DNA of 64,000 bases, from assembly GCA_030650025.1 (NCBI GenBank), contig JAUSEN010000016.1, positions 9,428-73,427 on the forward strand. Reading direction: 5' to 3'. A program made the position numbers and the translations under genes. This document shows, one piece after another, positions 7,299 through 58,381 of this stretch (the first letter of the stretch is position 1; every line of letters starts with the position of its first letter). Source of the DNA: Candidatus Magasanikiibacteriota bacterium (GTDB taxonomy: Bacteria > Patescibacteriota > Patescibacteriia > Magasanikbacterales > GWA2-37-8). The notes beneath the pieces are model-generated. The model saw only the letters and a program-made list of their open reading frames with translations, made no database searches and had not been told where the DNA came from.

Positions 7299-7478
7299 AA
7301 TAAGTAAGCTTGAAATTATAAAAAGGTTAAATTTAAGTCTAACTTTAGTTTAACTTATTATGTTATTATTGTCAACCCCCTCGATTTTGCTCGGGGTTGA
7401 CCTTGAGTGGAATCGAAAGGTCAAGGCCGAGCCTCTGGCTAATAGCCAGGCCGCGCTCCAATATGGTATACTGCTGGT

Positions 7479-9275
7479 ATGCATAATAGGGGGCAGAATG
7501 GTTTTAGCTTAGTTGAAGTCATCGTGGCGGTGGCCGTGTTTGTGCTGTTTGCTCTTGGGGTTTACGGCGCGATAAATAGTATTTTGGTGATAGCGCGCGA
7601 GTCGCGCCTTAAAGTTGCTGTGGCTGGCGTGTTAAGCCAGCAAATGGAAATAATTCGTAGCGTGCCATATGACAGCGTCGGGACAATTAATGGCCTACCG
7701 AGCGGGGTGCTTTCAGCTACTTCTACGATTACCGATGGCGGCTTGGTTTTTAATGTCATTACTACAGTTAGTTTTACGGATGATGCCTTTGATGGAACCG
7801 CGACCAGTACACCCGCTGACACCAACCCGGCGGATTATAAAGTGGTGACCGTGGCAGTTAGGTGCGCCTTTTGCGTAAGCCAACAGCCAGCGGTGGGGCG
7901 CACGTTCGTGGCTCCTCCGGTTTTCGAGGGAGCGCCCGAGACCGGGTCGCTCTTTATTCATGTGGTGGACGCGGAAGGCTGGCCAGTACCTGGCGCCAGC
8001 ATCAGTATCAGAAATGATTTTGTTAATCCGCCAGTCGCTGTTGACGCGGTGACGGACATGGACGGCTGGTATACGCTATTAAGCGCTCCGACCAGCACTC
8101 TTGGCTATAATATTACTACCACTAAAAGTGGTTATTCGCTGGATTATACAGCGGCCTCTTCTACAAACAACCCCGCGCCCACCAAATTGCCGGCCAGCGT
8201 TAGTGTGGGGGCGGCCACGACCATCAGTTTCGCGATTGATTTAACAGCGACTCTAAATGTTAAGACAGTGGACAATGTCTGCGCGGGGGTTAGCGCCGTG
8301 CCTTTTGCGCTCTCTGGCCAGAAGTTGATTGGTTCTTTGCCAATGGTTTATAAATTTTATCAAGATTTTACTACTGATGGCGGTGGCGACAAAACTTTCA
8401 GCGCGCTCGAGTGGGATAATTATTCCATAATGTTAAATAGCGCTAATTATGACGTGGCGGGCACGGTGCCGCTTCTGCCTTTCCCACTTTTACCGGGGGC
8501 AGCGCAGAACGCTACGGTCGTAGTGGCTCCGCATTCTAATAATTCTTTATTGGTAATTGTTAAGGACGCGGTAACGGGGTTGCCGTTGGCGGACGCCACG
8601 GCCAGGCTAACTAAGTCTGGTTACGACCAATCCCTAGTGACTGGCCTTGGGTTTGTGGGGCAAACGGATTGGTCGCTCGGGAGCGGGCAAGAAAGTTTTG
8701 CCAACGCGCAAAAATATTTTTCGGATAGCGGCAGCTTGAATGTGGCCGGATCACCGGGCGATGTGGTGCTTAAATCGAGCGGAAATAATTCTTTTTTATC
8801 GTCCGGGTGGCTCGAATCCTCTACGTTTGACGCGCATACCAGCGACATTGCTTACGCTCATTTATATATAACGCCCACGGCGCAACCGCATAAAGCGGGA
8901 GCGACCCCGCTTCAGTTTCAGCTGGCCACGAGCAATTCGAGCTCGCCGGCGGTGTGGAATTTTTTGGGTTCAGATGGTTCAGCCAATACTTTTTATACCG
9001 CTACGAATACGGTGATAACATCGCTCCACAACGACCAACGTTATTTGCGTTACCGCGCCTTTTTGTCCACTGTTGATAATAAGTATACGCCCATACTCTC
9101 GGATTTTTATTATACATTCACGAGCAGTTGTACGCCTCCGGGCCAGGCATTTTTTACTAATTTAGCGGCCGCCACCTACACTTTGACTGTTTCTAAAACC
9201 GGGTATCAAACTAACAGCGGCTCTTTGAATATAGTGGGCAATGGGCAGGCGGTAGTTAATTTATCGCCCAGCTAG
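7479..9275 (+). CDS. large type IV pilin-like protein (prepilin leader MHNRGQNG|FSLVEV)
   Basis: Class III signal peptide with G|FSLVEV and a hydrophobic alpha-1 helix, followed by about 560 aa of Thr/Ser-rich beta-rich sequence. An extended -10 (tggtatact) lies at about 7455-7463. Confidence 0.75.
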   Translation: MHNRGQNGFSLVEVIVAVAVFVLFALGVYGAINSILVIARESRLKVAVAGVLSQQMEIIRSVPYDSVGTINGLPSGVLSATSTITDGGLVFNVITTVSFTDDAFDGTATSTPADTNPADYKVVTVAVRCAFCVSQQPAVGRTFVAPPVFEGAPETGSLFIHVVDAEGWPVPGASISIRNDFVNPPVAVDAVTDMDGWYTLLSAPTSTLGYNITTTKSGYSLDYTAASSTNNPAPTKLPASVSVGAATTISFAIDLTATLNVKTVDNVCAGVSAVPFALSGQKLIGSLPMVYKFYQDFTTDGGGDKTFSALEWDNYSIMLNSANYDVAGTVPLLPFPLLPGAAQNATVVVAPHSNNSLLVIVKDAVTGLPLADATARLTKSGYDQSLVTGLGFVGQTDWSLGSGQESFANAQKYFSDSGSLNVAGSPGDVVLKSSGNNSFLSSGWLESSTFDAHTSDIAYAHLYITPTAQPHKAGATPLQFQLATSNSSSPAVWNFLGSDGSANTFYTATNTVITSLHNDQRYLRYRAFLSTVDNKYTPILSDFYYTFTSSCTPPGQAFFTNLAAATYTLTVSKTGYQTNSGSLNIVGNGQAVVNLSPS

Positions 9276-9343
9276 CAGCCGCGCTTCAAAGGTCGTTCGC
9301 GACATCGCGAGAGACACTGCGCGGCATGATTTTGTCAAATCAT

Positions 9344-9940
9344 ATGAAATCGAATCAGAGTGTCAGAGGATTTACTTTAATTGAGGTCATGGTGGCCGTG
9401 GCGATATCGGCTTTGTTTTTTAGCGCGGTGGCGGAGATTTTTTTGACAAGCTTTAAAACCGCCGGGCTGGTGAGCGATGAGCTCGAAGGCCAGAGTGGCG
9501 CGCGGCGCGCGGTGAATGATTTTGTGAGCCAATTTAGGCTGGCTTCATACTCGAGCGCGGGTGACTACCCCCTGAAGACAGCCAATATTAATGAAATTGT
9601 TTTTTACGCCAATATTGATAAAGATAACTTAATTGAAAAAGTGCGTTATTATTTAACGGACACTACTTTATACCGAGGGGTAACTAAACCGATTGGCAAT
9701 CCCTTGTCGTATGGGTCAGCGAGTGAAACAGCGGAGACATTGCTCGAGGGGGTGCGGCTGAATGGGAACCCTTTATTTACTTATTACCCGGCGGGTATTG
9801 CCGAGGCGCTAGTCCAGCCAGTTGATATCACGACCGTGCGCTTGGCGGGCATTTATTTGCGCGTGGATAAGAAGCCAACGGCGTCGCCGACAGCTTGGAG
9901 CGTGGCGGCCCGGGCGCAGATGCGGAATCTTAAAAATTAA
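9344..9940 (+). CDS. type IV prepilin/pseudopilin (start moved to ATG 9344: MKSNQSVRG|FTLIEV)
   Basis: A classical prepilin leader appears only if the start is taken at the CATATG ATG (9344). The track's upstream ATG at 9326 lies inside the conserved leader palindrome. Confidence 0.75.
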   Translation: MKSNQSVRGFTLIEVMVAVAISALFFSAVAEIFLTSFKTAGLVSDELEGQSGARRAVNDFVSQFRLASYSSAGDYPLKTANINEIVFYANIDKDNLIEKVRYYLTDTTLYRGVTKPIGNPLSYGSASETAETLLEGVRLNGNPLFTYYPAGIAEALVQPVDITTVRLAGIYLRVDKKPTASPTAWSVAARAQMRNLKN

Positions 9941-9950
9941 TGCTTGCTTT

Positions 9951-11339
9951 ATGAAATCAAGATTGGTTTTAAAAAATTTTATGAAGACAGCTCCCGGGAG
10001 CATTTTGTTGTACGTAATTGTTTTTGGAGCGTTGTCTTTTTCTTTTATTGTGATTGGCGTCGCGGGCTACGCGATTGGAGAGCACCGGGCGGGAGCGTAT
10101 CGGCAAAATAGCGAACTGGCCTTCCAAATCGCGGAAGCGGGGATAGAATATTATCGCTGGCATCTTAATCATGACCCCGAAGATTTTCAGGATGGTACTG
10201 GCGTAGCTGGGCCATATGTCCACGAATTTAAGAGCGGTGACGAGGTAATCGGCTACTACTCGCTTAATATTATTCCGCCCCAAGCGACTTCGTCAGTCAC
10301 GGTAGTGGAGTCCACGGGCTGGCTCGCGAGCCAGCCGCAAAGCAAACGCACTATTAGGGTTAAGCTCGGCAGTTCCAGTTTCACAGATCTGGCTAATTAC
10401 GCGTTTGTCGGCAACACGGATATTTGGGTCGGCAATGATACTATTATTAACGGGAGGATTCATTCAAATAACGGCATCCGTTTTGACGGCGTGGCCACGG
10501 CGCCGGTAACCAGCGCGGTCGCGAGCTACCAGTGCCAGCCAATCCACGGCGAAGGATGCCAAAACCAAACCAAGCCGGGCATCTGGGGGCAGGGCGGGCC
10601 ACAGTCGTTTTGGAAATTTCCCGTGGCGGCGAAAGATTTTAGCACCATCGCGTCGGACTTGGCCAATATTAAAAGTTTGGCTCAAGAGAGCGGCCTGTAC
10701 TTTTCCGCCTCGGGGCAACAAGGGTGGTATCTGCACTTTTTAACTAATGGGACATTCACCGCCGCCAAGGTGACAGCGACCGACTGTTACGCTGGCCAAG
10801 ATTTAGATGAGGAAATTGACTCGTGGTATTGCATTGACATTAAAACTACTGACACGGCCACCACTTATATTATACCTACCAGCAGTTATATTTTTGTGGA
10901 AGACACTGTTTTTGTAGATGGAGTGGTAAAGGGGCGAGTGACGATTGGGAGCGGGGCGGAGAAGTCTATTATTATAAACGATGATTTGACTTATGACGCT
11001 AAAGATGGAACCAACGCTATTGGGCTGATCGCTGATCAGCACGTGCTTTTGCCGCACGATAGCCCGGAAGATTTAGAAGTTAACGCGGTAATTTACGCGA
11101 AAAATGGGGCGGCGCGCCGCTATTATTACGCGGGCGATTTTAAGGATTCATTGCTTTTGTATGGTTCAGTAATTTCGGCTGGCACCTGGACCTGGAGCTG
11201 GATATCCAATGGCGGCGCGGTGGTGTCGGGGTACCGTTCCACCACGATAATTTATGACAGTAATTTGACCTATAATCCGCCGGGAGGGTTTTCTTTTGGC
11301 AAGGTCTATACGCCGCTATTCTGGGAAGAAGTGCGTTAA
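9951..11339 (+). CDS. PilX-like minor pilin / pilus-associated protein with N-terminal TM anchor
   Basis: The start is likely MKSRLVLKNFMKTAPGSILLYVIVFGALSF; the track ORF extends upstream into the preceding gene. Membership in the pilin cluster is the main argument. Confidence 0.5.
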   Translation: MKSRLVLKNFMKTAPGSILLYVIVFGALSFSFIVIGVAGYAIGEHRAGAYRQNSELAFQIAEAGIEYYRWHLNHDPEDFQDGTGVAGPYVHEFKSGDEVIGYYSLNIIPPQATSSVTVVESTGWLASQPQSKRTIRVKLGSSSFTDLANYAFVGNTDIWVGNDTIINGRIHSNNGIRFDGVATAPVTSAVASYQCQPIHGEGCQNQTKPGIWGQGGPQSFWKFPVAAKDFSTIASDLANIKSLAQESGLYFSASGQQGWYLHFLTNGTFTAAKVTATDCYAGQDLDEEIDSWYCIDIKTTDTATTYIIPTSSYIFVEDTVFVDGVVKGRVTIGSGAEKSIIINDDLTYDAKDGTNAIGLIADQHVLLPHDSPEDLEVNAVIYAKNGAARRYYYAGDFKDSLLLYGSVISAGTWTWSWISNGGAVVSGYRSTTIIYDSNLTYNPPGGFSFGKVYTPLFWEEVR

Positions 11340-12508
11340 ATGAGAGCGTTTAAAAATTTGTCTACGCTCATAACGCGCACATTTTTTTCTTGCCAGTCTA
11401 CATTTGGTGTTTCCACAATTTGATACAGAAAAGGAATTTTGAGACGTTGTTCAAAATAGTTCAAATTTTTAGATGGAGTGGTGTCGGATAATTTTACTTC
11501 TACCGCAAACCAGGGCTCACGATGGTGCGTAATTAAAAAATCAATTTCACGTCCGGCAACATCGCGCAAGAAAAATAATTCAACATTGTGGCCGTCGGCA
11601 TCTTTTAAATAATGTACGAATTTCAACAAATGCGAAGCGACAATATTTTCTAGCCGCGCCGCGCTGTTTTCTAAAACCGACCAATCCCATAAATATAGTT
11701 TAGGTTCTTTACGCAGACTTTTTATGGCGGTTGCTTGGTATGGATAAATGCGATAATGGTAGTAAAAACGTTCTAAAATTTCCACCCAGTGGGCGATAGT
11801 TTTGTGTGTTACCCCCAGATCTTCGCGCAAACTGTTAAGAGAAAAAAGCGCTCCTACTTTAGAAGGCAACAATTCGTTAAGAACCTGTAAGCTAGATAAA
11901 TCGCGAACTAATTCCACGTCGCGAATGTCATCTTCGATCAGACGATCCAAGCGTTCGTTCTGCCAACGCCGCAAATGGCGCTCATCTTTGGTAAATAAAG
12001 GTTCGGGGAATCCGCCCCATTTAAATAAACTATCATAAGCCGATCGAGAGTTGAGAGACGAAAAGCTAAGGCTCTTTCCGACAATGATGTTGGGAGTTAA
12101 ATTGAGCAGTTCGGCAATGGAAAAAGGGTGTAAGCGAAAATAATGGTAACGACCCATTAAGGAGTCGCCCCCGTGACGATACAAATCTAGGCGGGCGCTG
12201 CCGGTAATAAGTAAGGCATATTTTTGGTTGTTTGTGTCATACAGACCTTTTAAGTAATTTTTCCATTGGCGATATTTATGAAGTTCATCAAAAATAACGA
12301 GACGGGAATCGCCCATAAATTGTTGTTTTAATATTCTTTGACGGTCAGCACGGTTGTCCCAATTTAGATAATCGCTTGGTGTTAGGGCGTTGTTGCCAAT
12401 AGAATGGGCAAGCGTAGTTTTACCTACTTGTCGGGGGCCGCCCACAAATACCATTTTTTTGTCTAAATCATTGGCGATTATTTTTTCCAGATAGCGTTTT
12501 ATATGCAT
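11336..12508 (-). CDS. AAA+ ATPase (DUF4143-type)
   Basis: Walker A VFVGGPRQVGKTTLAH and overall architecture typical of the ATPase_AAA + DUF4143 family. Confidence 0.75.
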   Translation of the reverse strand: MHIKRYLEKIIANDLDKKMVFVGGPRQVGKTTLAHSIGNNALTPSDYLNWDNRADRQRILKQQFMGDSRLVIFDELHKYRQWKNYLKGLYDTNNQKYALLITGSARLDLYRHGGDSLMGRYHYFRLHPFSIAELLNLTPNIIVGKSLSFSSLNSRSAYDSLFKWGGFPEPLFTKDERHLRRWQNERLDRLIEDDIRDVELVRDLSSLQVLNELLPSKVGALFSLNSLREDLGVTHKTIAHWVEILERFYYHYRIYPYQATAIKSLRKEPKLYLWDWSVLENSAARLENIVASHLLKFVHYLKDADGHNVELFFLRDVAGREIDFLITHHREPWFAVEVKLSDTTPSKNLNYFEQRLKIPFLYQIVETPNVDWQEKNVRVMSVDKFLNALI

Positions 12509-12703
12509 AAGTTAGCGGAAATTTAGTTAAATACAAAGATATTATACCGAAGTATAAAAAGTTTGTCAAGTTTTTGTACTTTGGTAGAAAATGTTGATTC
12601 CATAATTCAGGTATAAAAATTGGTTGCTGACATTCCGGAATTTTGTTATACTAGTCTAAGAGGAACGGTATTTAAGTTTCGCCAATTTTTAAAAAAATGA
12701 GGT

Positions 12704-12742
12704 GGCTCCGCGCGAGCGGAGTGAATTTTTGACAAAATTCAT
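12704..12742 (+). promoter_or_regulatory. leader module: GC hairpin (ctccgc-GCGA-gcggag) + palindrome TGAATTTT-tgac-AAAATTCA abutting the galU start codon
   Basis: Seen in sequence; same architecture at five other start codons (findings). Confidence 0.6.
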
Positions 12743-13609
12743 ATGCAAATAGTCCGTAAAGCCGTGATTCCGGTGGCGGGGTTTGGTACCAGGTTCTTGC
12801 CGGTGACTAAAGCCAGCCCTAAAGAAATGCTCCCGGTGGTGGACAAGCCCGTGGTGCAATATGTGGTGGAGGAGCTGGTCGCGTCCGGAATTACGGATAT
12901 TATTTTGGTTACCGGCGCGAGTAAAAGGGCGGTGGAGGACCACTTTGATTATAATTTTGAACTGCAAGCCTGGTTAAAAAAACAAGGCAAGTTAAAAGAA
13001 GAGCAAGAAGTGCGCCACATTGCCGAGATGGCGAATTTTATTTATATCCGCCAAAAAGGGAACTATGGCAATGGCACGCCGTTAATTTGCGCGAAAGATG
13101 TGGTGGGGAACGAGCCGTTTGTTTATATTTGGGGAGATGAGTTTGTGGGAGCGAATCCGCCGAGAGTGAAACAATGCTTGGACGTTTTTTATAAATATGG
13201 CGACCCGGTGGTGGCGGGCGTGCGCGTGCCCAAAAAAGACGTTAGCAAATATGGAATTGTTGAGGTGACAAAATTGGAAAAGAATATATATCAAATTTTT
13301 TCTTTTATTGAAAAACCCACTCCGCGCGAGGCGCCCTCAAATTTGGCGGCTCTCGGCTGTTATATTTTAACGCCCGATGTTTTTGATAATATTAAAAATA
13401 TTAAACCTGGCAAAAGTGGCGAGGTGTGGATTGTGGATTTGGTCAGCCGGCTCATGAAAAAGCGTCCGTTTTACGCCTGCGAAATTGCCAACGGCACTTA
13501 CTATGACACAGGTTCTAAACTTGGTTGGTTAAAAGCGAACGTGGATTTTGCTTTGCGCGACCCGCAGTTAAAGACAGAGTTTAAAAAATATTTGCGAAGC
13601 GTGGTATGA
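12743..13609 (+). CDS. galU: UTP--glucose-1-phosphate uridylyltransferase
   Basis: N-terminal AVIPVAGFGTRFLPVTKASPKEMLPVVDKPVVQYVVEE is the GalU signature. Confidence 0.9.
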   Translation: MQIVRKAVIPVAGFGTRFLPVTKASPKEMLPVVDKPVVQYVVEELVASGITDIILVTGASKRAVEDHFDYNFELQAWLKKQGKLKEEQEVRHIAEMANFIYIRQKGNYGNGTPLICAKDVVGNEPFVYIWGDEFVGANPPRVKQCLDVFYKYGDPVVAGVRVPKKDVSKYGIVEVTKLEKNIYQIFSFIEKPTPREAPSNLAALGCYILTPDVFDNIKNIKPGKSGEVWIVDLVSRLMKKRPFYACEIANGTYYDTGSKLGWLKANVDFALRDPQLKTEFKKYLRSVV

Positions 13610-17790: not shown

Positions 17791-17801
17791 TGTGGTATAA
17801 T
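17791..17801 (+). promoter_or_regulatory. extended -10 promoter (tgtggtataat) for paralog 4
   Basis: TGnTATAAT lies about 55 nt upstream of the strong SD gggaggtga and ATG 17854. Confidence 0.4.
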
Positions 17802-17853
17802 AGATTTTAGCTATGTTGACGTTATTATTAAACATAGGAAGGGAGGTGACACT

Positions 17854-18252
17854 ATGATTAAAATGCAGAAATTTCTCGCTCCAATCATGATGTCTTTAAC
17901 ACTCGTTAGCGCCATGCCAGCGATCGCGGCGACAGACACTCTTAAGGATACGGATCTCTTACCGCCGAAGATAGGAGAAACGACCGGCCTTGGCACTGGT
18001 GATATCCGTTTGACCGTCGCGAAAATTATTCGCGTCGCTATGGGCCTCCTTGGTATCGTGGCCGTGGTTATTATCTTGATTGGCGGCTTTACTTGGATGA
18101 CCGCGGGCGGCAACGAAGAAAAGGTAGGCGAAGCCAAGAAATGGATTTTCGCCGGTATTATTGGTCTCGCGATTATTCTTTCCGCTTACGCGATTGCCAG
18201 CTTCGTTATTACGCAATTGGTGGACGCGACTACGCAAGCCGGAGTCATTTAG
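17854..18252 (+). CDS. pilin-module paralog 4 (short form)
   Basis: Signal peptide, short ectodomain, ILIGGFTWMTAGGNEEKVGEAKKWIFAGIIGLAIILSAYAIASFV. Confidence 0.65.
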   Translation: MIKMQKFLAPIMMSLTLVSAMPAIAATDTLKDTDLLPPKIGETTGLGTGDIRLTVAKIIRVAMGLLGIVAVVIILIGGFTWMTAGGNEEKVGEAKKWIFAGIIGLAIILSAYAIASFVITQLVDATTQAGVI

Positions 18253-20962: not shown

Positions 20963-21052
20963 CGATTGCGCCGCGCTTCAAAGGACCCGCCCGCCTCGCT
21001 ACGCGAAGCGTTGCGGGCAGGCACTGCGCGGCACGATTTTGTTAAATCGCAT
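20963..21052 (+). promoter_or_regulatory. conserved structured 5' leader (variant B) ending in palindrome CGATTTTgttAAATCG + CATATG
   Basis: Shares gccgcgcttcaaagg...cactgcgcggca(c/t)gattt with leaders at 9278-9343 and 22911-22961; contains a nested GC palindrome homologous to 54606-54645. Confidence 0.55.
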
Positions 21053-21526
21053 ATGAAAAAACTTTTTGCGTATCAACTAGTGGCAGTATTCGTAGCGTTC
21101 CTCGCTTTGTCTTTTGTGGTAATAACCCCGGCGCGGGCGGAGGACACCAGCTCTGATATCCGGAAACAACTCGAGGCGGCGGGTGGCACGCAAGGCGCGA
21201 ATTATGGGGAAGCGGTTGACCCGCGAGTCACCGCGGCTTTGATTATTCGGGCGATGCTCGGCATGACTACGATTATTTTGATTATTTTAAATATTTACGC
21301 GGGAATCACTTGGATGACAGCCGGCGGAAACGAGGAAAAGGTGGACAAAGCCAAAACGACAATTAGAAATTCCACTATCGGACTGATTATTGTTTTGTCC
21401 GCTTACTCGATAACTGTTTTTGCCACTTACATCGCGCGGGGCCAGCAGTTTGGCCTCGGCGGCGGGCCTAACGCTTTATCGCGCGGTTTAGGCAATTTCT
21501 TCCAGTCGCGGCAGGGTCCGAATTAA
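21053..21526 (+). CDS. pilin-module paralog 10 (start moved to CATATG ATG 21053: MKKLFAYQLVAVFVAF...)
   Basis: The track ORF begins at 20822 but its first 77 aa are the translated GC-rich leader. A plausible signal peptide begins at 21053. C-terminal IYAGITWMTAGGNEEKVDKAKTTI module. Confidence 0.6.
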   Translation: MKKLFAYQLVAVFVAFLALSFVVITPARAEDTSSDIRKQLEAAGGTQGANYGEAVDPRVTAALIIRAMLGMTTIILIILNIYAGITWMTAGGNEEKVDKAKTTIRNSTIGLIIVLSAYSITVFATYIARGQQFGLGGGPNALSRGLGNFFQSRQGPN

Positions 21527-22712: not shown

Positions 22713-22910
22713 AAAAATAGCTTATCCCGCCACAGCGGGACCCCGCCTCGCGGCGGTGGGAAGGCTACTGTTTTATCCGCTCCGACGCCCCGCTTTGCGG
22801 GGGTCGGAGCCCCGACTTTACGTCGGGGTTAAACTATGGGATCAAGTGGCTCTATGGTAATCAATTTGGCCTTAAAAATCAAGTTATGGTATAATTTAAG
22901 AGTAACTAAT

Positions 22911-22961
22911 ATTTGCGCCGCGCTTCAGAGGACGTTGCGCGGCATGATTTCGTCAAATCAT
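22911..22961 (+). promoter_or_regulatory. conserved structured 5' leader (variant C) with palindrome TGATTTcgtcAAATCA + CATATG, preceded by an extended -10 (tggtataat at ~22888)
   Basis: ttgcgccgcgcttcagaggacgttgcgcggcatgatttcgtcaaatcatATG. Confidence 0.55.
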
Positions 22962-23324
22962 ATGTACAAGAAGATAAAAGTACTGTCGACTGTTTTTATA
23001 ACTTTTTTGGTTACTTGGCCAATGACAGCCCTGGCGCAATATGGTTTGAACGAAGCGGCCGGGAAAATGGGGTTTGATAGAAGCAAGAATGTTTACGGAG
23101 TGATTAGCCTCGTGGTGGGGGCAGCGTTGGCGTTTACCGGACTAGTGTTTTTTGGAATGATGATGTACGCTGGTGTGCGCTGGATGACCGCGCGCGGCAA
23201 CGAAGATTTGGCAGAGAAGGCCAAACAAGCCCTCGCGAATTCTACGATTGGTTTTGTAATCGTGGCGCTTTCTTACGCCCTGACGCGGTTTGTGTTTGGA
23301 GCGCTTAATTTGCCGACATTTTAA
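22962..23324 (+). CDS. pilin-module paralog 11 (start moved to ATG 22962: MYKKIKVLSTVFITFLVTWPMTALA)
   Basis: C-terminal MYAGVRWMTARGNEDLAEKAKQALANSTIGFVIVALSYALTRFV; the track ORF starts upstream inside the leader. Confidence 0.6.
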   Translation: MYKKIKVLSTVFITFLVTWPMTALAQYGLNEAAGKMGFDRSKNVYGVISLVVGAALAFTGLVFFGMMMYAGVRWMTARGNEDLAEKAKQALANSTIGFVIVALSYALTRFVFGALNLPTF

Positions 23325-30529: not shown

Positions 30530-32310
30530 GGTGCGTACCGCAAAAAGGTCGTTTTTTACGACCGCCACGTCCCCTGCACCAGAACGCTTCGCGTCCGGTT
30601 CAGGGCTTCGCAGTCTAGCTCTGGCTACTAGCGAAGCGCCACTCGGGACCTCTAGAAAATTGCGTAGCTTACACAAAAAACGATGTATATTGCTACAAAA
30701 TTTACTCGAGTTACTCCAAGTGGTTAAAAACCCCACCCATTTTATTGGGCCGCTTGGAAAAGCGGCTTTTATTATTTTGGTCGGCTCAGATCGGTGAGAC
30801 AGAGATTTCTCCCCGCTCTAGGCGGGTCGAAATGACAGTGCAGAGTGGACTGGCTGGTACTTTGACAATTCAGGCAAGCACCATGCACCACCATAAACCA
30901 CAAGGGTTTATGGCAAACAAGGGTGCATGGCTAAATAACCATGAACCACAAGGGTTCATGGCAAGATTAATGCTTATTTTAAACATCAAGGTCTGGTGTT
31001 TAAAATAATAAAGGGTAACTTCATAAACATGAATATTGTCATGAAAAATTATGAAGTCAACTCAACGTAAGCACCATTTGGTGTTTTCGTTGTGTGCAAT
31101 TTCAACAAGAGCATATGGTGGATGCCTAGACACTAAAAGATGAAGAAGGACGTTGCAAGGTGCGATAAGCCTCGGGGAGCTCCTAAGCAAGCTGTGATCC
31201 GGGGATTTCCGAATGGGGAAACCCGTTACAAAGAAATTTGTAACATCGTATACTGAATTCATAGGTGTACGAGGAAGACCTGGCGAAGTGAAACATCTCA
31301 GTAGCCAGAGGAAAATAAATCGAAGAGATTCCCTTAGTAGTGGCGAGCGAAAAGGGATCAGCCTAAACCTTATACATGTTGTTGCCGTAACAGATTGATC
31401 GCAAGGTTAATTATGAGCGGCAGTTTAAAGACGCAGGTCGTTGTGTATATGGTGTAATAAGACAATTACGCGTCCGCCCTGCGGCGGACGGTGAAAATGT
31501 GACTTTCCTAGTAGAACGCTCTGGAACGAGCGGCCGCAGAGGGTAAGAGCCCCGTACGCGAAAGGAGTCTATATAATCATGGTAGTTGTTCTTGAGTAGG
31601 GCGGAACTCGTGAAATTCCGTCTGAATTCGGGCCGACTATGGTCTAAGGCTAAATACTTTTAGTGATCGATAGTGGACTAGTACCACGAGGGAAAGGTGA
31701 AAAGTAGCCCGGTGAGGGCGATGAAATAGTATCTGAAACCATATGTTTACAAAGAGCGGAAGACCGGAGTACCCAGAATTATTCCCCCCTACGGGGGGAA
31801 TAATTCTGGGTCCTGGTCGACCGTGTTCCTATTGAAGAATGAGCCTGCGAGTGTGCTGTATGTCGTTGCTTAAACCCTTCTGGGGTGGAGGCATAGCGAA
31901 AGCGAGTCTTAACGGGCGTATATAATGGCATGCACATAACCCGAAACCGGGTGAGCTATCCATGACCAGGATGAACCCTTCCGAAAGGAAGGGGGAGGTC
32001 CGAACACACGAGCCGTGCAACACTCGGTGATGAGTTGTGGATGGGAGAGAAATTCTAATCGAACTCGGTGATAGCTGGTTCTCCTTGAAATAGTTTTAGG
32101 ACTAGCCTCGCGCGTTCCCTTTGGCGGTAGAGCACTGGATGAGACTCGGGTCCTTCGGGATACCAGTTTCAATCAAACTCCGAATGCCGAAGATTAAAAG
32201 CGCGGGAGTCAGACTGTGGGGGCTAAGCTCCATAGTCAAAAGGGAAACAGCCCTGATCGCCAGCTAAGGTCCCTAAATCCATATTAAGTGTGAAAGGTGG
32301 TGTTAACTCT

Positions 32311-32348
<38 letters not shown>

Positions 32349-33172
32349 TAAAGAAAGCGTAACAGCTCACTGGTCAAGAGTTTTCGCGCCGAAAATGTAC
32401 CGGGGCTAAATATGGTACCGAAGCTGCGAATTGGTAGATCCTCCGGGATTTACCTCTGGTAAAGGAGCGTTGGTAGCTGCGCTGAAGCCATAGCCGCGAG
32501 GCGTGGTGGAGTGCTACCAAGTGAGAATGCAGGCATGAGTAACAATAAGGGAAGTGAGAATCTTCCCCGCCGAAAATCCAAGGTTTCCTGGGCAACGAGA
32601 CTCGACCCAGGGTTAGTCGATCCTAAGGCCAGGCCGAAAGGCGTAACCGATGGAAGAGCAGGTTAATATTCCTGCACTTGGTATAGTTTGTTTGTTAGTG
32701 CGCATAGTGAAGCTGACAGCGTGTTTTGAATATACACGTTTCTTTACCCCGACGTGAAGTCGGGGCAGGGACGAAGATGAAGCCTTCGGGTGGAGTCAAC
32801 TGTCGGGGACGCTGTGCCTAGAAAAGCTAATAAACGTTAAGCTATATCAAACCGTACCGTAAACCGACACAGGTAGGTGAGTCGAGAAGACTAAGGCGTA
32901 CGAGAGAACCCTCTTTTAGGAACTCTGCAATACAGCGGCCGTAACTTAGGGATAAGGCCCGCCCCGATGTAAAAATCGGGGTTACAACAAAAGACGCACT
33001 GCGACTGTTTACCAAAAACACAGCTCCCTGCAAAAGCGCAAGCTGAAGTATAGGGAGTGATGCCTGGCCAGTGTCAGAACGTTAAGGCGAGAGGTTATCC
33101 GGTCATCCGACCGGAGAAGCCTTGAACTGAAGCGCTGATGAACGCCGGCGGTAACTATAACCGTCCTAAGGT

Positions 33173-33408
33173 AGCGGACTTGAGAAATCGAGCACGCTAG
33201 GATTGGGACGGATATAGCAAAAAGTAAACAATCATTAAAGATGAGCAGAGTCATCGAAATATTAACAGCCATTCAAAAAATGCTACCTTGCTTTGCAGTA
33301 ATGCAAAGAATAATCCGGTCATAGCTTATGAGAGACTATACGCTATGCTCCTCCGACGAAACTCGGAGGAAGAAGATTTAGTCCTTCGTCATTAAACAGG
33401 AAACGAAG
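33173..33408 (+). mobile_element. group I-like intron (ORF-less), inserted after the U of GGU|AGCG (E. coli ~L1931, helix 69/70 region)
   Basis: The conserved ccgtcctaaggt.agcgaaattccttgtcgg is interrupted by 236 nt; the 5' exon ends in U and the insert ends in G. Confidence 0.6.
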
Positions 33409-33430
33409 AGCGAAATTCCTTGTCGGGTAA

Positions 33431-33682
33431 ACCAAGAACTTGCCCCCTGGTCGAGTAATTGACCTTGAAGCAATAGCTGTATCGGTGGAACCCATAAAAA
33501 ATCGTGCAGATTAATTATGGGCAATACCGAGGGAAGTCCTCCCAAAATGGAGTGACCCCGTAGAGACTACACGCTGTCTCCCGAGTTATTCGGGATGAAG
33601 ATATAGTCCGATCCTGCCGAGTAATTGGCAGCCCTACGAAAATCAAAAATCTAAAATCATAAATCGAAAATTCGTAGATGGA
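33431..33682 (+). mobile_element. second 23S insertion (~252 nt) within GGGUAA|GUUCCGACC (E. coli ~L1951-1953); intron-like, ORF-less
   Basis: Conserved flanks gggtaa and gttccgacctgcacgaatgg are contiguous in E. coli; boundaries are uncertain by 1-2 nt. Confidence 0.55.
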
Positions 33683-34208
33683 GTTCCGACCTGCACGAAT
33701 GGCATAACGATAGTGCGACTGTCTCAAAGAGGGACTCGGTGAAATTGCAAGGAAGGTGAAGATGCCTTCTACCCGCAACTAGACGAAAAGACCCCGTGAA
33801 GCTTTACTACAGCTTGCTATTGGTATACGTGCACGTATGTTGAGCGTAGGTGGGACCCGCAAGGGGCCAATGAGACACCACCCTTATGTATATGTATGCC
33901 TAATCTCTGCCCGTGAATCCGGGGAGGGAGACAGTGGCTGGCGGGTAGTTTATCTGGGGCGGATGCCTCCTAAAATGTAACGGAGGCGTTTACAAAGGTA
34001 GGCTTAGCGCGGATGGAAATCGCGCTGGACGTGCAAACGCAAAAGCCTGCTTTACTGCAAGGGCTACAACCCGCGCAGTTGCGAAAGCAGAAGTTAGTGA
34101 ACCGACCATCCTATATAGGAAGGTGGAAGATCAACGGATAAAAGCTACTCCGGGGATAACAGGCTGATCGCGCCCAATAGTCCACATAGACGGCGCGGTT
34201 TGGCACCT

Positions 34209-34573
34209 TAAATTATCGGGGTGCATACAAAGTGATTTGTTTCCAAGTTTTTTCGTCTAAAACAATTATGTTAAGATAGAAATAGAGATTTAAATCGGCT
34301 TATAACGGTGAACCCGTCATCCCGCCTAAGGCGGGATCGGCAATACCGTGGGAAGTCGCCCATTAACTGTGGGTTGACCCCGTAACGACTGACCCGAAAG
34401 GGGAGACTCGGTTACAGTTAGTAATCGGGTAATACGCCGACTCTTATATTAATCAAACTGAGATCATGCGACTCACGCCCCGAGCAAGTCCCGAAAGGGA
34501 CAAGTCGAGGGGTCCGCTAACATCCAGTATAAGAAGAAGATATAGTCTGCCCCATACGAAAGTATGGAATCAT
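34209..34573 (+). mobile_element. third 23S insertion (~365 nt) in the peptidyl-transferase-centre strand GGCACC|U(A)CGAUGUCGG (E. coli ~L2500); intron-like, ORF-less
   Basis: tttggcacc ... tacgatgtcggctcatc flanks; no long ORF inside. Confidence 0.55.
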
Positions 34574-34636
34574 GTACGATGTCGGCTCATCGCATCCTGG
34601 GGGTGAAGAAGCTCCCAAGGGTTTGGCTGTTCGCCA

Positions 34637-34688
<52 letters not shown>

Positions 34689-35124
34689 CTATCTGTTGCG
34701 GGCGCAGAATGTTGCAAAGACTCTTCCCTAGTACGAGAGGACCGGGAAGAATAAACCTCTGGTGTGCGAGTTGTTCCGTCAGGAGCATTGCTCGGTAGCT
34801 ACGTTTAGCACGGATAAACGCTGAAAGCATCTAAGCGTGAAGCCGTCTTTAAGATTAACATTCGTTATAGACCCCTTGTAGATTACGAGGTTGATAGGCT
34901 CTACGTGTAAGCACAGTAATGTGTTGAGCGGAGGAGTACTAATCGGTCGAGCGCACAACGAAAGCATTAAGTGGTGCTCACCTCTTCGGTGAGTCTACGA
35001 GTTATGTTTGCCATGTCATTCGACATGGCCTTGCCTGAATTTAGTCATTGTAGTAAACTATTTTGAAAATTCCCCCGCCAAAAGCGGGATCAGCTCGCTA
35101 ACGCGAGCCGAAAAAAGAACTAAT

Positions 35125-35236
35125 GTCTTGGTGGCTTTAAGCGAAGGGGTCACACCCGATCCCATCCCGAACTCGGCAGTTAAGCCCTTCTGCGCTGATG
35201 ATAGCCCAAGTGGCAAAAGTAGGCCGCCGCCAGGAC
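35125..35236 (+). rRNA. 5S rRNA
   Basis: cccgatcccatcccgaactcggcagttaagc matches the 5S loop B/C consensus (cf. E. coli cccacctgaccccatgccgaactcagaagtgaaac); terminal helix gtcttggtggc / gccgccaggac. Confidence 0.8.
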
Positions 35237-37396: not shown

Positions 37397-38008
37397 CTAA
37401 GGCAACTCCAGCAGGGAAGTACTGAATCCAGCAATAATATTTTTGATTGCCGGGTTGAGCATTTTTTCGGCTAGGATTTCTTCCCAAGAATACTCTTTAA
37501 AGTAGGCTACTTCTTGTAAATCCGGAGTCGGGGTGCCTTGGAATTCGCTATAAAATATATACCAATAGTGGTGGGGGGCGCCGCGGCGGCAAAGGTCATT
37601 TTCGGAAAGTCCTTCCCATAGTAGTTTATATTTTTCTAAAGTAAAACCAGTTTCTTGGGCAGTTTCTCGAAGCAAAGTCTGTTCGGGAGTTTCGTCTATA
37701 GTAACGTGGCCGGCAACATTGTCGATTACTTGAGGGAAGGTGCGTTTTTTCATGAGTAAAAATTTTCTGGTGGCGACATTGCGCAGTAAAACGCCAATGG
37801 TAAAATGCTGCATTTGCTCGCGATGCCAAACAGTTTTGGTGCGGTTGTCCAGGCGCAACTTTAGCCCATCGGTTTTATTGCATTGCAAACAATGAAATTG
37901 TATTTGGTCTGGCGTAATAATTTTGCGAGGGTTTGGCGCCAGGCAAAAATAGCAATAATCGCCATCGGCTAATTTGGCTAGATCTTTTTTTAGATGAATA
38001 GGATACAT
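37397..38008 (-). CDS. NUDIX hydrolase with N-terminal zinc-ribbon
   Basis: CYFC...CLQC zinc ribbon; Nudix box GHVTIDETPEQTLLRETAQETGF. Confidence 0.75.
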   Translation of the reverse strand: MYPIHLKKDLAKLADGDYCYFCLAPNPRKIITPDQIQFHCLQCNKTDGLKLRLDNRTKTVWHREQMQHFTIGVLLRNVATRKFLLMKKRTFPQVIDNVAGHVTIDETPEQTLLRETAQETGFTLEKYKLLWEGLSENDLCRRGAPHHYWYIFYSEFQGTPTPDLQEVAYFKEYSWEEILAEKMLNPAIKNIIAGFSTSLLELP

Positions 38009-38139
38009 AAGTAATTATACGTTACTCTTATTAGTTAAATAGATCAAGACTTGGCAATTTCGTAAGTTTGCGTTATAATGAATCGTCGATAGGTTTAATG
38101 GGTTTAATTGAAGCCTATTTTTTAATAAGTTGAGAATTT

Positions 38140-38676: not shown

Positions 38677-38735
38677 AAATAAAATGATATTGTATCTGTA
38701 GGGGCGGGGTTACCCCGCCCCTACGTTGTATATTT

Positions 38736-45287: not shown

Positions 45288-45326
45288 CGCTCCACGCGAG
45301 TGGAGTGATTTTCTGAGGAAAATCAT
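45288..45326 (+). promoter_or_regulatory. leader module: hairpin ctccac-GCGA-gtggag + palindrome TGATTTT-ctgagg-AAAATCA abutting the glmS start codon
   Basis: It begins 8 nt after the upstream stop codon and ends at CATATG. Confidence 0.6.
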
Positions 45327-47168
45327 ATGTGTGGAATTGTTGGGTACATTGGAAAAAAACAGGCGTTACCGATTTTGCTTAATGGCTTGAAGCGTTTGGA
45401 ATACCGAGGGTATGATTCCGCGGGCGTGGCAGTATTAAATGAGGGGTTGTTTCAGACTACGCGATCGGTCGGTAAGATCGATAATTTGGTGGCAAAAATG
45501 CAAGATGAAAAAATAGGTGGGGCGAGCGGAATAAACGGGACGATGGGAATCGCTCACACCCGCTGGGCTACGCATGGCGGTGTTACCGAGGAAAATGCCC
45601 ATCCGCATAAGGATTGCACGGGTAATTTGATGATTGTGCATAATGGTATTATAGAAAATTATCGCGAACTTAAAGAAGATCTTGGTAAAAAACATGAATT
45701 TAAATCGCAGACTGATACGGAAGTGCTGGCGCATTTAATTGAGTCTTTATATAAAGGCGATTTACGGCTGGCAGTGGAAGCCGCTCTGGCTAAGGTGCGC
45801 GGGACATATGGATTGGTAGCTATGCATGCCAGCGAGCCCACAAAAATAGTAGCGGCGCGTTTGGGGAGCCCGCTCGTGGTGGGAGTGGGCGATAAAGAAT
45901 ACTATGTAGCTTCCGACACTTCGCCAATGCTGGCGCACACGCAGCAAGTGATTTTTTTAGATGATGGCGAAATCGCGGAAATTAGCGAACACGGGGTGCA
46001 GATTTATAATTTGGCTGATGAGAGGCTGAATAAACCAAGTGAAAAAATTGATTGGGACGAAACTACGGCCGAGCGGCAAGGGCATGACCACTTTATGCTT
46101 AAAGAAATTTTGGACCAGCCCACGGTTATTAAAGATGCTTTGCGCGGCCGTTTGGTAGAGAGCGATGGCACGGCTCGTCTCGGCGGCCTCAACATGACCG
46201 AGGAAGAAATGCACAAGATTAAGAGGGTGATATTGATCGCGTGTGGGACAGCGAGTTATGCCGCTCTCGTCGGTAAATATGCCTTTGAACGTTTAGCGGG
46301 GTTACCGACTACCGTAGAAATTGCCAGTGAATTTCGCTACAGCGACCCGGTGATAGATAATCACACTTTGGTTTTTGGCATCTCACAGTCTGGGGAAACC
46401 GCTGATACGCTCGCGGCCTTGCGCGAAGCCAAACGCAAGGGCGCGTTTGTGCGTGGTATTGTTAATGTGGTAGGTTCGACAATCGCTCGCGAAACTGATG
46501 GCGGCACCTATATTCACGCGGGGCCAGAATTGGCGGTCGCTTCGACAAAAGCGTTTATGAATATGATAGGCGTTTTGCTGATGTACGCGTTGCAGTTTGG
46601 GCGAGTAAATCGCCTGGCTGTGGCCACGGGCCAGCGTTTAGTTAAAGCCATGCTCCAGATTTCGGGAAAGATGAAGCAGACGCTCGAGTTAAGCGATCAA
46701 ATTAAAATTCTCGCCAAAAAATATTCTGGTTATAAAAATTATTTTTTCTTGGGGCGAGGAGTTAATTACCCGGTAGCTTTGGAAGGGTCTCTGAAACTTA
46801 AAGAATGTTCATATATTCATAGCGAAGCTTACCCGGGAGGGGAAATGAAGCATGGGCCAATCGCGCTTTTGTCGCCGGATTTCCCGGTGATGGCGATTAT
46901 GACCAAAAACCAGCTCTACGATAAAATGCGCAGCAATGTTGAAGAGATTAAGGCGCGTCAGGCGCCGCTGATAATTATAGCGACCGAGGGGGATGATAAG
47001 GCCAAAGAGCTCTCTGAAGATGTAATATATGTTCCTGCCACGATGGAGCTTTTAGAGCCGTTAATTAATACGATCCCGCTCCAGCTGTTTGCTTACCACA
47101 CCGCAGTAATGCTCGGGCGCGATGTTGACCGCCCGCGCAATTTAGCAAAGAGCGTGACTGTTGAGTAA
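45327..47168 (+). CDS. glmS: glutamine--fructose-6-phosphate aminotransferase
   Basis: MCGIVGY N-terminal nucleophile and two SIS domains; the C-terminus ends ...SVTVE. Confidence 0.9.
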   Translation: MCGIVGYIGKKQALPILLNGLKRLEYRGYDSAGVAVLNEGLFQTTRSVGKIDNLVAKMQDEKIGGASGINGTMGIAHTRWATHGGVTEENAHPHKDCTGNLMIVHNGIIENYRELKEDLGKKHEFKSQTDTEVLAHLIESLYKGDLRLAVEAALAKVRGTYGLVAMHASEPTKIVAARLGSPLVVGVGDKEYYVASDTSPMLAHTQQVIFLDDGEIAEISEHGVQIYNLADERLNKPSEKIDWDETTAERQGHDHFMLKEILDQPTVIKDALRGRLVESDGTARLGGLNMTEEEMHKIKRVILIACGTASYAALVGKYAFERLAGLPTTVEIASEFRYSDPVIDNHTLVFGISQSGETADTLAALREAKRKGAFVRGIVNVVGSTIARETDGGTYIHAGPELAVASTKAFMNMIGVLLMYALQFGRVNRLAVATGQRLVKAMLQISGKMKQTLELSDQIKILAKKYSGYKNYFFLGRGVNYPVALEGSLKLKECSYIHSEAYPGGEMKHGPIALLSPDFPVMAIMTKNQLYDKMRSNVEEIKARQAPLIIIATEGDDKAKELSEDVIYVPATMELLEPLINTIPLQLFAYHTAVMLGRDVDRPRNLAKSVTVE

Positions 47169-57116: not shown

Positions 57117-57155
57117 CGTCCCGACGTACGTCGGGACATGATTTCGTAAAATCAT
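57117..57155 (+). promoter_or_regulatory. leader module: hairpin gtcccgac-gta-cgtcgggac + palindrome TGATTTcgtaAAATCA abutting the start codon
   Basis: Ends at CATATG 57153-57158. Confidence 0.55.
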
Positions 57156-58304: not shown

Positions 58305-58381
58305 AAATTGCTTAATCAGAGTCTTCAAGCGGGCGCCCCGCGCCACAGGCACGGGGCGCCCGTTCTGTAAATTGGCGTAAT

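Follow-up and report, generated by a model that had tools for sequence, protein, structure and literature searches.

A dispersed two-hairpin element placed or retained at start codons in Magasanikbacteria-like bacteria

What kind of signal recurs directly in front of start codons in a genome of Candidatus Magasanikiibacteriota? The question is raised by the leader of galU (12704-12745) in a 64,000-nt stretch of contig JAUSEN010000016.1 (assembly GCA_030650025.1, positions 9,428 to 73,427), which we call the window and whose own numbering is used throughout. A preliminary description of this stretch had pointed to six sites where a short GC hairpin and a palindrome precede an ATG, and had read them as an intrinsic terminator or attenuator, or as an operator, serving a common regulon of sugar and pilin genes. 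Our analysis leads to a different picture: the finding is real, the interpretation proposed for it is largely wrong, and the outcome is of more interest than the proposal was. What recurs at the six sites is a dispersed two-hairpin element of 45 nt that belongs to Magasanikbacteria-like bacteria, members of the candidate phyla radiation (CPR), and not a signal of a sugar/pilin regulon. It is a repeat that spreads by insertion and is either put or kept at start codons.

All six sites were verified by direct reading of the sequence. In each, 0-1 nt separate a GC-rich hairpin (P1) from an AU-rich hairpin or palindrome (P2), and the ATG of a real open reading frame (ORF) comes another 0-3 nt further on. 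Pfam assigned the six downstream ORFs to N_methyl prepilin (start at 9344), NTP_transferase/GalU (12743), T4SS_pilin (21053 and 22962), GlmS (45327) and Peripla_BP_6, a solute-binding protein (SBP; 57156). A covariance model, R1, was built from metagenome copies together with the site at 22917 and searched unfiltered against both strands of the window. Its top six matches were precisely these six sites, with 73.9, 37.7, 36.0, 31.5, 14.8 and 14.6 bits; all remaining matches scored below 12 bits, and the best of them were reverse-strand echoes of the P2 palindromes. Thus, the six-site architecture noticed at the outset stands, and the pattern is not due to chance.

The canonical copy, which together with two longer ones we assign to class A, is 45 nt long and lies at 22917-22961 on the plus strand (73.9 bits). 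Its P1 occupies 22917-22943 (GCCGCGC-UUCAGAGGACGUU-GCGCGGC) and its P2 22944-22961, directly followed by the ATG of a T4SS pilin gene at 22962. The copy at 9278-9343 (+; also scored at 63.1 bits) has an extra hairpin in the P1 loop, so that the P1 arms stand apart at 9278-9284 and 9319-9325; P2 follows at 9326-9343 and the prepilin ATG at 9344, while the TAG stop of the gene upstream ends at 9275. A larger hairpin is found in the P1 loop of the copy at 20970-21052 (+; also scored at 55 bits), with P1 arms at 20970-20976 and 21026-21032, P2 (CGAUUU-UGUU-AAAUCG) at 21034-21049, then CAU and the ATG of the other T4SS pilin gene at 21053. In both cases, the extra hairpin sits between AAAGG and ACR of the loop. 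The short GC hairpins first described at 9325, 21031 and 22941 do exist, but they represent only the 3' end of the larger hairpins that start at 9278, 20970 and 22917, two of which carry the extra loop hairpin. The P1-type unit shared by these three copies, GCCGCGC-UUCA(A/G)AGG...-GCGCGGC, also stands beside glmS in a related metagenome-assembled genome (L017:7246; L numbers denote loci on other contigs).

The remaining three copies (galU, glmS and SBP) form class B: they retain P2 and the spacing to the start, while P1 is replaced by unrelated GC hairpins with tetraloops. At galU, P1 spans 12705-12722 on the plus strand (GCUCCGC-GCGA-GCGGAGU, with a loop of the GNRA type) and lacks the conserved family loop; P2 spans 12723-12740 (+; (U)GAAUUUU-UGAC-AAAAUUC(A)), and a U separates it from the start codon at 12743. 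With 14.6 bits, this copy ranks sixth in the window. The glmS copy (45289-45326, +) is composed of P1 at 45289-45306 (GCUCCAC-GCGA-GUGGAGU), P2 at 45307-45324 (GAUUUUC-UGAG-GAAAAUC), AU and the ATG at 45327; there is a GAGGA in and beside its P2 loop, and its P1 begins 8 nt past the upstream stop codon. Both of these last points of detail reported earlier, namely the 8-nt distance and the GCGA loop of two P1 hairpins, proved correct. The galU and glmS copies are about 85% identical, with one compensatory change from G-C to A-U in P1. The SBP copy (57118-57155, +; 36.0 bits) combines a P1 of the form GUCCCGAC-GUAC-GUCGGGAC with P2 AUGAUUU-CGUA-AAAUCAU, identical to the family P2, before the ATG at 57156. 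Outside the window, 2.6 kb upstream of it, the same genome has a seventh copy (L126:6722-6779), again of class B, in front of a ChlI/ComM-like gene. A generic scan of 0.74 Mb for a GC hairpin, an AU hairpin and an ATG found no class B copies outside this genome, although that scan was dominated by noise once G-U pairs were allowed. As for the palindrome itself, a P2 of the expected type is present at all six sites, but the literal TGAWTTT..AAAWTCA pattern occurs at three only, the others being ATGATTT..AAATCAT (two) and CGATTT..AAATCG (one).

Promoters can be recognized upstream of two of the modules. At galU, TTGCTG-N17-TATACT (12624-12652, +) places the module within a 5' leader of about 83 nt, in which a Shine-Dalgarno (SD)-like run, GAGGUGG (12699-12705, +), stands directly 5' of P1; for the 22917 copy, the promoter of the T4SS pilin gene is at 22866-22895 (+). 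Both modules are therefore transcribed within a leader, and the claim that a recurrent structure overlaps the initiation region holds. In single-sequence folds, the two adjacent hairpins are the minimum free energy structure at galU, glmS and 22917, while at 9278, 20970 and SBP only P1 forms and a competing pairing takes the place of P2; the fold z-scores are modest (-1.7 to -3.5). At three copies (P2 at 9326-9343, 22944-22961 and 57138-57155), the 5' arm of P2 opens with an in-frame AUG 18 nt upstream of the true start. At 57138, this AUG opens a three-codon mini-ORF, AUG AUU UCG UAA. The mechanical ORF list places the prepilin start at 9326 and thereby adds MILSNH to the protein; automatic annotation is likely to err in the same way, as the AUG in P2 misleads gene callers into a spurious MI(S/L)xNH extension.

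To see the family beyond the window, metagenome contigs were scanned for GCTTCARAGG-N5-35-GC-N7-GATTT-N4-AAATC, a pattern that fixes neither the outer pairs of P2 nor five of the seven pairs of P1. It returned 97 loci, comprising about 60 true copies, about 30 occurrences of one unrelated conserved gut-bacterial gene and a few chance matches, which were discarded. The copies are spread over many contigs with a GC content of 32-62%. L005, L017 and L024 are Magasanikbacteria-like beyond doubt, L063 is more distant (its GlmS is 63% identical), and most of the other contigs carry no taxonomic assignment. Among viral contigs, the sole match was a chance one in a giant-virus bin. The family consensus reads G(Y)CGCGC-UUCAAAGGAC(R)NU-GCGCG(R)C-AUGAUUU-(Y)GNN-AAAUCA-U-AUG. 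Thus, the canonical element measures 44-45 nt: P1 is a GC hairpin of 7 bp with a nearly invariant 13-nt loop, in which the GGA of an AAAGGA motif never changes, and it is immediately followed by P2, an AU hairpin of 7 bp (AUGAUUU-(Y)GNN-AAAUCA(U)). Copy density is very uneven, with six copies in the 64 kb of the window versus two in about 330 kb from 20 related species. Neither the whole window nor short pieces of it (76-111 nt) gave a match in Rfam 15, be it at the gathering threshold or at E values up to 10, and literature searching, limited as it was, brought up no description of such an element in CPR bacteria.

A search for covariation in the hairpin had been proposed as a check, and the comparison of copies supplies it: both stems and a loop-loop pair covary. 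Pairing statistics were calculated first on 45 sequences and then on 60 distinct sequences. In the latter set, P1 is paired in 99% of cases, with compensatory changes at five of its seven pairs, and P2 in 95.5%, with compensatory changes at four of seven. In addition, the purine following GGAC in the P1 loop corresponds to the pyrimidine that opens the P2 loop (AU in 29 sequences, GC in 28, GU in two, never unpaired), and this pair adjoins an almost invariant C:G (58/60). Such covariation of R and Y next to an invariant C:G indicates a loop-loop or pseudoknot contact. Altogether, 11 of 18 pairs change on both sides, as befits a structured single-strand element of RNA or of single-stranded DNA, and the observed covariation score was reached by none of 500 shuffles and in no slid register. 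The main P1 pair and the loop-loop pair vary independently of each other, their states being seen in all four combinations, so that the covariation was not produced by two clonal lineages. In the two class A copies of the window with an extra loop hairpin, the loop-loop complementarity is still perfect at 9278 (GACA with UGUC) and partial at 20970 (CA with UG, plus wobble pairs).

How strictly is the element tied to start codons? Of the 61 unique copies of class A, 45-46 (about 75%) have AAAUC followed after 0-4 nt by an ATG that opens a real ORF, with this ATG at exactly +2 in 41 of them. Since the scan pattern contained no ATG, this association is free of the search bias. About 89% of the start-abutting copies have a T between the element and the ATG. 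In the window, TCATATG is found at five of the six starts, the sixth (21053) having the context CGCATATG, and these five are the only occurrences of TCATATG on the plus strand. The CATATG context had been regarded as a trait of the module; the observation is right for five sites of six, but T at -1 is general in this genome, being present at 48 of 53 starts. T at -1 is as frequent at the element as genome-wide, and so the element itself ends at ...AAAUCA, while the following U-AUG belongs to the gene.

The genes behind these starts have little to do with one another. They encode ribosomal proteins S12, L18 and L7/L12, EF-Tu, the alpha and epsilon subunits of ATP synthase, SSB, NrdR, a SecD/F-like protein, YebC, GlmS, PurF, PurD, AspRS, TpiA, AroQ, a UDP-glucose dehydrogenase-like protein, an FtsW/RodA-like protein, an RND-type transporter and pilins. 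No functionally coherent set of the kind expected of a riboswitch or a regulon emerges from this list. Some copies follow promoters, with the -10 box 6-37 nt upstream of P1, and others come right after the stop codon of the preceding gene of an operon, for example between L10 and L7/L12, before L18 and within atp operons. Such unrelated downstream genes and intra-operon positions rule out a sugar/pilin regulon and make a terminator role implausible.

If the element is not a conserved regulatory signal of these genes, how did it get there? Syntenic loci L121-L125 were recovered through GalU homologues of 76-87% identity. Conservation of the modules at orthologous genes is not supported: these relatives carry none at galU, at the prepilin gene or at any of about ten T4SS pilin genes, while the flanking promoters and stop-ATG junctions are conserved. 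In the closest relative (L121, 87% GalU identity), the TTGTTATACT box is the same but lies only 9 nt from the galU ATG, with no hairpins in between, compared with the leader of about 83 nt in the window. At the site of the 22917 copy, L123 has TGGTATAAT, 20 nt and the ATG, while the window has TGGTATAAT, 21 nt, the 45-nt element and the ATG; at the prepilin gene, L122 and L123 have a stop codon, 1-8 nt and the ATG, where the window holds a 66-nt copy. Filled and empty orthologous sites of this kind are what an insertional element leaves behind. The hairpins before glmS are likewise missing from 20 relatives, six of which keep AAAUCAUAUG, a context specific to glmS and not a general one. Furthermore, the copy before the orthologous T4SS pilin gene in L024 is identical to the 22917 copy at 44 of 45 positions, although the pilin proteins are only 38% identical and PNPase from the same locus 74%.

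Copies are also found where no start codon is at hand. Five independent in-frame insertions lie within genes, namely those for FtsK (L058), TrpD (L089), TatD (L037), TrmD (L080) and XRE-Panacea (L033, L068, L072 and L094). All are of the 45-nt version, share one common frame, encode (G/S)RASKDxARHDFxKS and have no ATG behind them. Aligned with the solved structures of TrmD and TrpD, the peptide falls opposite a gap of 11 residues. In-gene copies add RASKDxARHDFxKS loops to enzymes. Behind three copies (L027, L067 and L085) there is no ORF but a terminator-like hairpin, and a degenerate antisense copy comes just after the 5S rRNA gene in L005. Two different copies are stacked at one start in L029, L097 and L034; the start-proximal copy is intact in all three, and the upstream one is degenerate in L097 and L034 and intact in L029. 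A sub-family with P1 of the form GUCGCCCC-UCAAAGGAC(R)U-GGGGGCGAC was seen in two unrelated contigs (L029:10711-10806 and L097:2957-3048), each time stacked in tandem with a canonical copy; the P2 arms of the L029 representative are fully compensated (AUAAUGU/ACAUUAU).

The signals by which this host chooses its start codons are peculiar in themselves. T precedes the ATG in 48 of 53 window genes (for example at 482, 7479, 13606 and 16871, and on to 61745) versus about 28% of all ATGs on that strand, and a GGAG, GAGG or AGGA run within -25..-4 occurs at only six of 53 starts. It seems that the start signal of this organism comprises four bases, UAUG, and that SD pairing is little used. The anti-SD motif is reported to be often missing in Parcubacteria (PMC9297842). 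Canonical GGAGG sites are nevertheless functional at a few genes of the lineage: one T4SS pilin paralogue has a strong canonical SD (GGAAGGGAGGUGACA, NU, AUG) and a TATAAT promoter in three genomes (window 17800-17856; L123:14440-14498; L125:7740-7792), so canonical SD pairing still works for at least that gene. Several promoter-proximal genes look leaderless or nearly so, with TATACT 6 nt before the ATG at 7479 (7450-7481), TATAAT 5 nt before the ATG of a minus-strand gene ending at 38008 (38008-38030) and TATACT 9 nt before galU in L121 (L121:1020-1048). The 3' end of 16S rRNA was sought for pairing with UUCAAAGG or AAAUCAU, and neither the window nor any of the loci contains a 16S gene; the stretch of the element of interest for such complementarity is UUCAAAGGA.

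Keeping this host in mind, we tentatively favour, with less than even confidence, the view that the transcribed element is a portable structured initiation leader, immediately adjoining the start signal, in an organism where SD sequences are seldom used. P1, P2 and the loop-loop contact would fold the 45 nt into a compact body, with UAUG at its 3' foot, shielded from the upstream sequence. The P1 loop might then display its conserved AAAGGA spatially near the AUG, creating a split ribosome-binding site like those of phage T4 genes 25 and 38, while the weak AU-rich P2 would either stay looped out or melt into an unstructured A/U-rich leader of 18 nt. Copies would survive only where the exact spacing keeps translation intact or betters it, and those at galU, glmS, SBP and L126 may be simplified forms in which any stable GC hairpin stands in for P1. 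In its support we count the covarying structure, the fixed spacing, the diversity of the downstream genes, the empty sites, the in-frame copies, the near-identity of copies beside diverged pilin genes, the SD-poor host and the invariant GGA of the P1 loop. No DNA sequence marks the position one base before a start codon, since the -1 base varies as at ordinary starts and in-gene copies have no ATG, and the exact spacing is thus best explained by selection on translation. Moreover, four class B copies in one genome keep the layout of hairpin, hairpin and UAUG with an unrelated P1, which suggests selection on the architecture. Of the protein- or RNA-binding role at initiation put forward in the preliminary description, an initiation role, possibly exerted via a bound factor, is still the leading idea, while its operator/regulon form is unsupported.

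Several observations weigh against such a leader. In the linear sequence, the GGA of the loop is about 29 nt from the AUG, so it could play an SD role only with both stems folded, and the GAC following AAAGG is also used in the loop-loop pairing, so that the two roles compete. Mismatches within the P1 and P2 stems comprise six G-U and eight A-C, with no excess of wobble pairs; as these counts are alike, a folded single strand of RNA cannot be distinguished from one of single-stranded DNA. The stacked copies favour targeted insertion over selection alone, and the patchy distribution has the look of a selfish repeat and not of an essential mechanism. The metagenome pattern was near-consensus by design, and the conservation described above is partly a product of how the copies were found. 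Finally, the translational role itself is read from sequence and position, and we consider it possible rather than probable.

Among the other explanations, a purely selfish palindromic repeat (similar to REP, RPE or MITE elements, discussed below) deserves the closest attention, even if it seems to us somewhat unlikely. Here, a copying machinery would target the 5' side of start codons or sites beside existing copies, an enzyme would recognize the fold in single-stranded DNA, and the host would gain no function. The empty sites of syntenic relatives, the burst-like and patchy distribution, the in-frame copies in conserved enzymes, the copies in 3' regions together with the antisense one by the 5S rRNA gene, the double insertions stacked at one start and the lack of a wobble excess over A-C mismatches all agree with it. 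What it leaves without explanation is the spacing, for which no sequence target exists, and the class B layout kept around an unrelated P1; there are also no terminal inverted repeats, target-site duplications or GTAG/CGTC tag, and no HUH transposase was detected by tblastn with an IS608 TnpA query in about 1 Mb of DNA, which is a weak test. A bolder version of the leader reading, unlikely in our opinion, would make the element a self-folding module for ribosome recruitment and start positioning, a bacterial analogue of an internal ribosome entry site: the pseudoknot of the P1 and P2 loops would dock on the small subunit and bring UAUG to the P site, the module would have spread in CPR genomes that have largely abandoned SD sequences, and in-gene copies would be by-products of its mobility. 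We find it quite unlikely that the element is a global operator or riboswitch. In that case, the P1 loop would be bound by a small ligand or by an RNA-binding protein, for which something like CsrA, with its preference for GGA in hairpin loops, is a candidate type. The complex would hold P2 and the contact between the loops in place, cover positions -1 to -18 and keep about 10% of genes repressed together, and the terminator-followed copies (L027, L067 and L085) could serve as decoy RNAs. An invariant loop, here of 13 nt, that is joined by a covarying tertiary pair is what one typically sees in a binding pocket, the size is near that of the smallest riboswitches, units of module plus terminator without an ORF do occur, and CAAAGGACGU resembles the CsrA consensus ACARGGAUGU. 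On the other hand, the distance to the AUG varies by no more than 1 nt, and the helix never extends over the AUG, in contrast to typical sequestering helices; class B has dropped the loop altogether and yet keeps the layout; close relatives have the same genes without the element; Rfam gave no match even at E = 10; and tblastn with CsrA and Hfq queries found neither protein, again a weak test, as the approximately 1 Mb covers a small part of each genome.

A role as punctuation for RNA processing or stability appears very unlikely. According to it, leaderless or nearly leaderless mRNAs would be freed from operon transcripts by an endonuclease acting at the 3' foot of P2, or P1 would act as a stabilizer of 5' ends. 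The fixed distance of 1 nt from the P2 foot to the AUG, the leaderless appearance of several promoter-proximal genes of this genome, the location of modules between operon genes and, at some loci, a -10 box 6-7 nt before P1, which would make P1 the 5' end of the transcript, fit this idea. However, cuts at the in-frame copies in FtsK, TrpD, TrmD and TatD would destroy essential mRNAs, the distance from promoter to P1 varies from 6 to 37 nt, and a candidate nuclease is not known. The model from which this study departed, an intrinsic terminator or read-through attenuator, or else a DNA operator (for instance of TrmB), defining a regulon of UDP-glucose and GlcN-6-P synthesis, pilins and a solute-binding protein, is largely refuted and must be regarded as extremely unlikely. 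Like intrinsic terminators, the element has a GC hairpin followed by U-rich sequence, the class B copies have U4-5 three nt past the stem, and a loose terminator scan flags the galU P1 (12705-12722). Yet this class B copy is the only one to pass that scan; the class A consensus differs from intrinsic terminators in its 13-nt loop and its poor, interrupted U-tract (AUGAUUUY), and modules stand inside ribosomal-protein and ATP-synthase operons and directly before starts. The folds contain no competing helix of the kind that an antiterminator, and hence an attenuator, would need. As for TrmB, its gene is found upstream of galU in L122 and L125, but these relatives have no module there, nothing ties the TrmB-like gene of the window to the sites, and loop-loop covariation would be meaningless for an operator in double-stranded DNA. 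With the genes downstream of the family being unrelated housekeeping genes, the common sugar/pilin regulon has to be abandoned as well. Two further candidates were rejected: TTCAAA might pass for a -35 box, but inspection showed no -10 box at the proper distance, and none of the core motifs of hammerhead, pistol or twister ribozymes is present, in keeping with the negative Rfam result.

It is useful to compare the element with known systems. In behaviour, its closest analogue is the Rickettsia palindromic element (RPE), reportedly first described by Ogata et al. in 2000. RPEs (reviewed in PMC10969869) are likewise lineage-specific dispersed palindromic repeats found both between genes and in frame within conserved protein genes, where they add a short hydrophilic peptide to permissive loops; no copying mechanism is known for them. 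The in-gene copies described here behave in the same way, forming an extra loop with respect to homologues. Unlike our element, RPEs are 100-150 bp long, confined to Rickettsia and unrelated in sequence, and have neither a fixed place 1 nt before starts nor reported loop-loop covariation; no homology to them is seen in this 45-nt element of Candidatus Magasanikbacteria. REP (repetitive extragenic palindromic) sequences and their composite forms, BIMEs (bacterial interspersed mosaic elements), which are associated with RAYT transposases, are GC-rich hairpin repeats of 20-40 nt with many copies per genome (PMC3733652). They resemble the element in having short GC-rich hairpins and compensatory stem changes, but they bear a terminal GTAG/CGTC tag, are usually located 3' of genes and are accompanied by a RAYT gene. 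No such feature was seen here: the element opens with G(Y)CGCGC, and its 5' flanks are unconserved and carry no tag. Nor does it look like a miniature inverted-repeat transposable element (MITE), as its ends, GYCGCGC... and ...AAAUCA, are not mutual inverted repeats and its flanks show no duplication.

In genes 25 and 38 of phage T4, a hairpin between a distant SD-like sequence and the AUG is looped out, and the two are thereby brought together. That split ribosome-binding site serves single genes with a single-stranded SD, while the element is a multi-copy repeat with two hairpins and its GGA in a hairpin loop, for which this function is a candidate one. The preQ1-I, guanidine-II and guanidine-IV riboswitches are about 35-50 nt long; nucleotides of their loops are conserved, and pairing between loops or in a pseudoknot takes place immediately before the start. 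The element shares with them its size, the conserved loop and the loop-loop pairing before the start codon; these small riboswitches differ in having coherent downstream genes and in not being inserted into genes, and the ACGR loops of guanidine-II are invariant, whereas the corresponding loop of the element varies (GACG/GACA).

Why might such an element matter? Start-codon choice in CPR bacteria is an open question, and many of them lack SD/anti-SD pairing. A conserved 45-nt structure with a tertiary contact, located 1 nt before the starts of highly expressed unrelated genes, offers a concrete and mutable object for testing SD-independent initiation. If, on the contrary, the element is purely selfish, it would be, as far as limited literature searching shows, the first RPE-like in-frame palindromic repeat outside Rickettsia-type genomes, and one with a near-exact preference for the base before the start.

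Several minor observations concern the surroundings of the modules. Between the pilin cluster and galU, an AAA_14/DUF4143 ATPase gene (11336-12508, minus strand) forms a local insertion adjoining the galU leader; in L122 and L123, galU comes directly after the gene of 456-464 aa. Other long GC hairpins lie 11-23 nt before starts without a P2-type palindrome, namely guaggggcgggg-uua-ccccgccccuac before 38736 (38700-38735) and gggcgccccg...cggggcgccc before 58382 (58330-58381), and these may be ordinary terminators of the upstream genes. GC skew is positive throughout the window (1-64000), and the plus strand carries all six modules as well as nearly every gene, so that orientation relative to replication and to transcription is inseparable here. 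At glmS, the AT-rich Magasanikbacteria L008, L009, L015 and L021 have another conserved leader about 100 nt upstream (for example, L009:9900-10000), composed of gaacguagcuaaaacaaaaguuuucagagucuacagaucc, a variable hairpin and ggauaauaaaaaucauAUG; it has no Rfam match and may be an unrelated structured leader. Six of 20 Magasanikbacteria-like relatives keep AAUCAUAUG at glmS, and elsewhere it is rare. Finally, the 23S rRNA gene of the window is 3.87 kb long (31093-34959), contains a group I intron (33419-33631) and several other insertions, and is followed by the 5S rRNA gene (35127-35235). With no 16S gene upstream of it in the window, the rRNA genes appear to be unlinked, and L005 has the same layout of 23S, intron and 5S.

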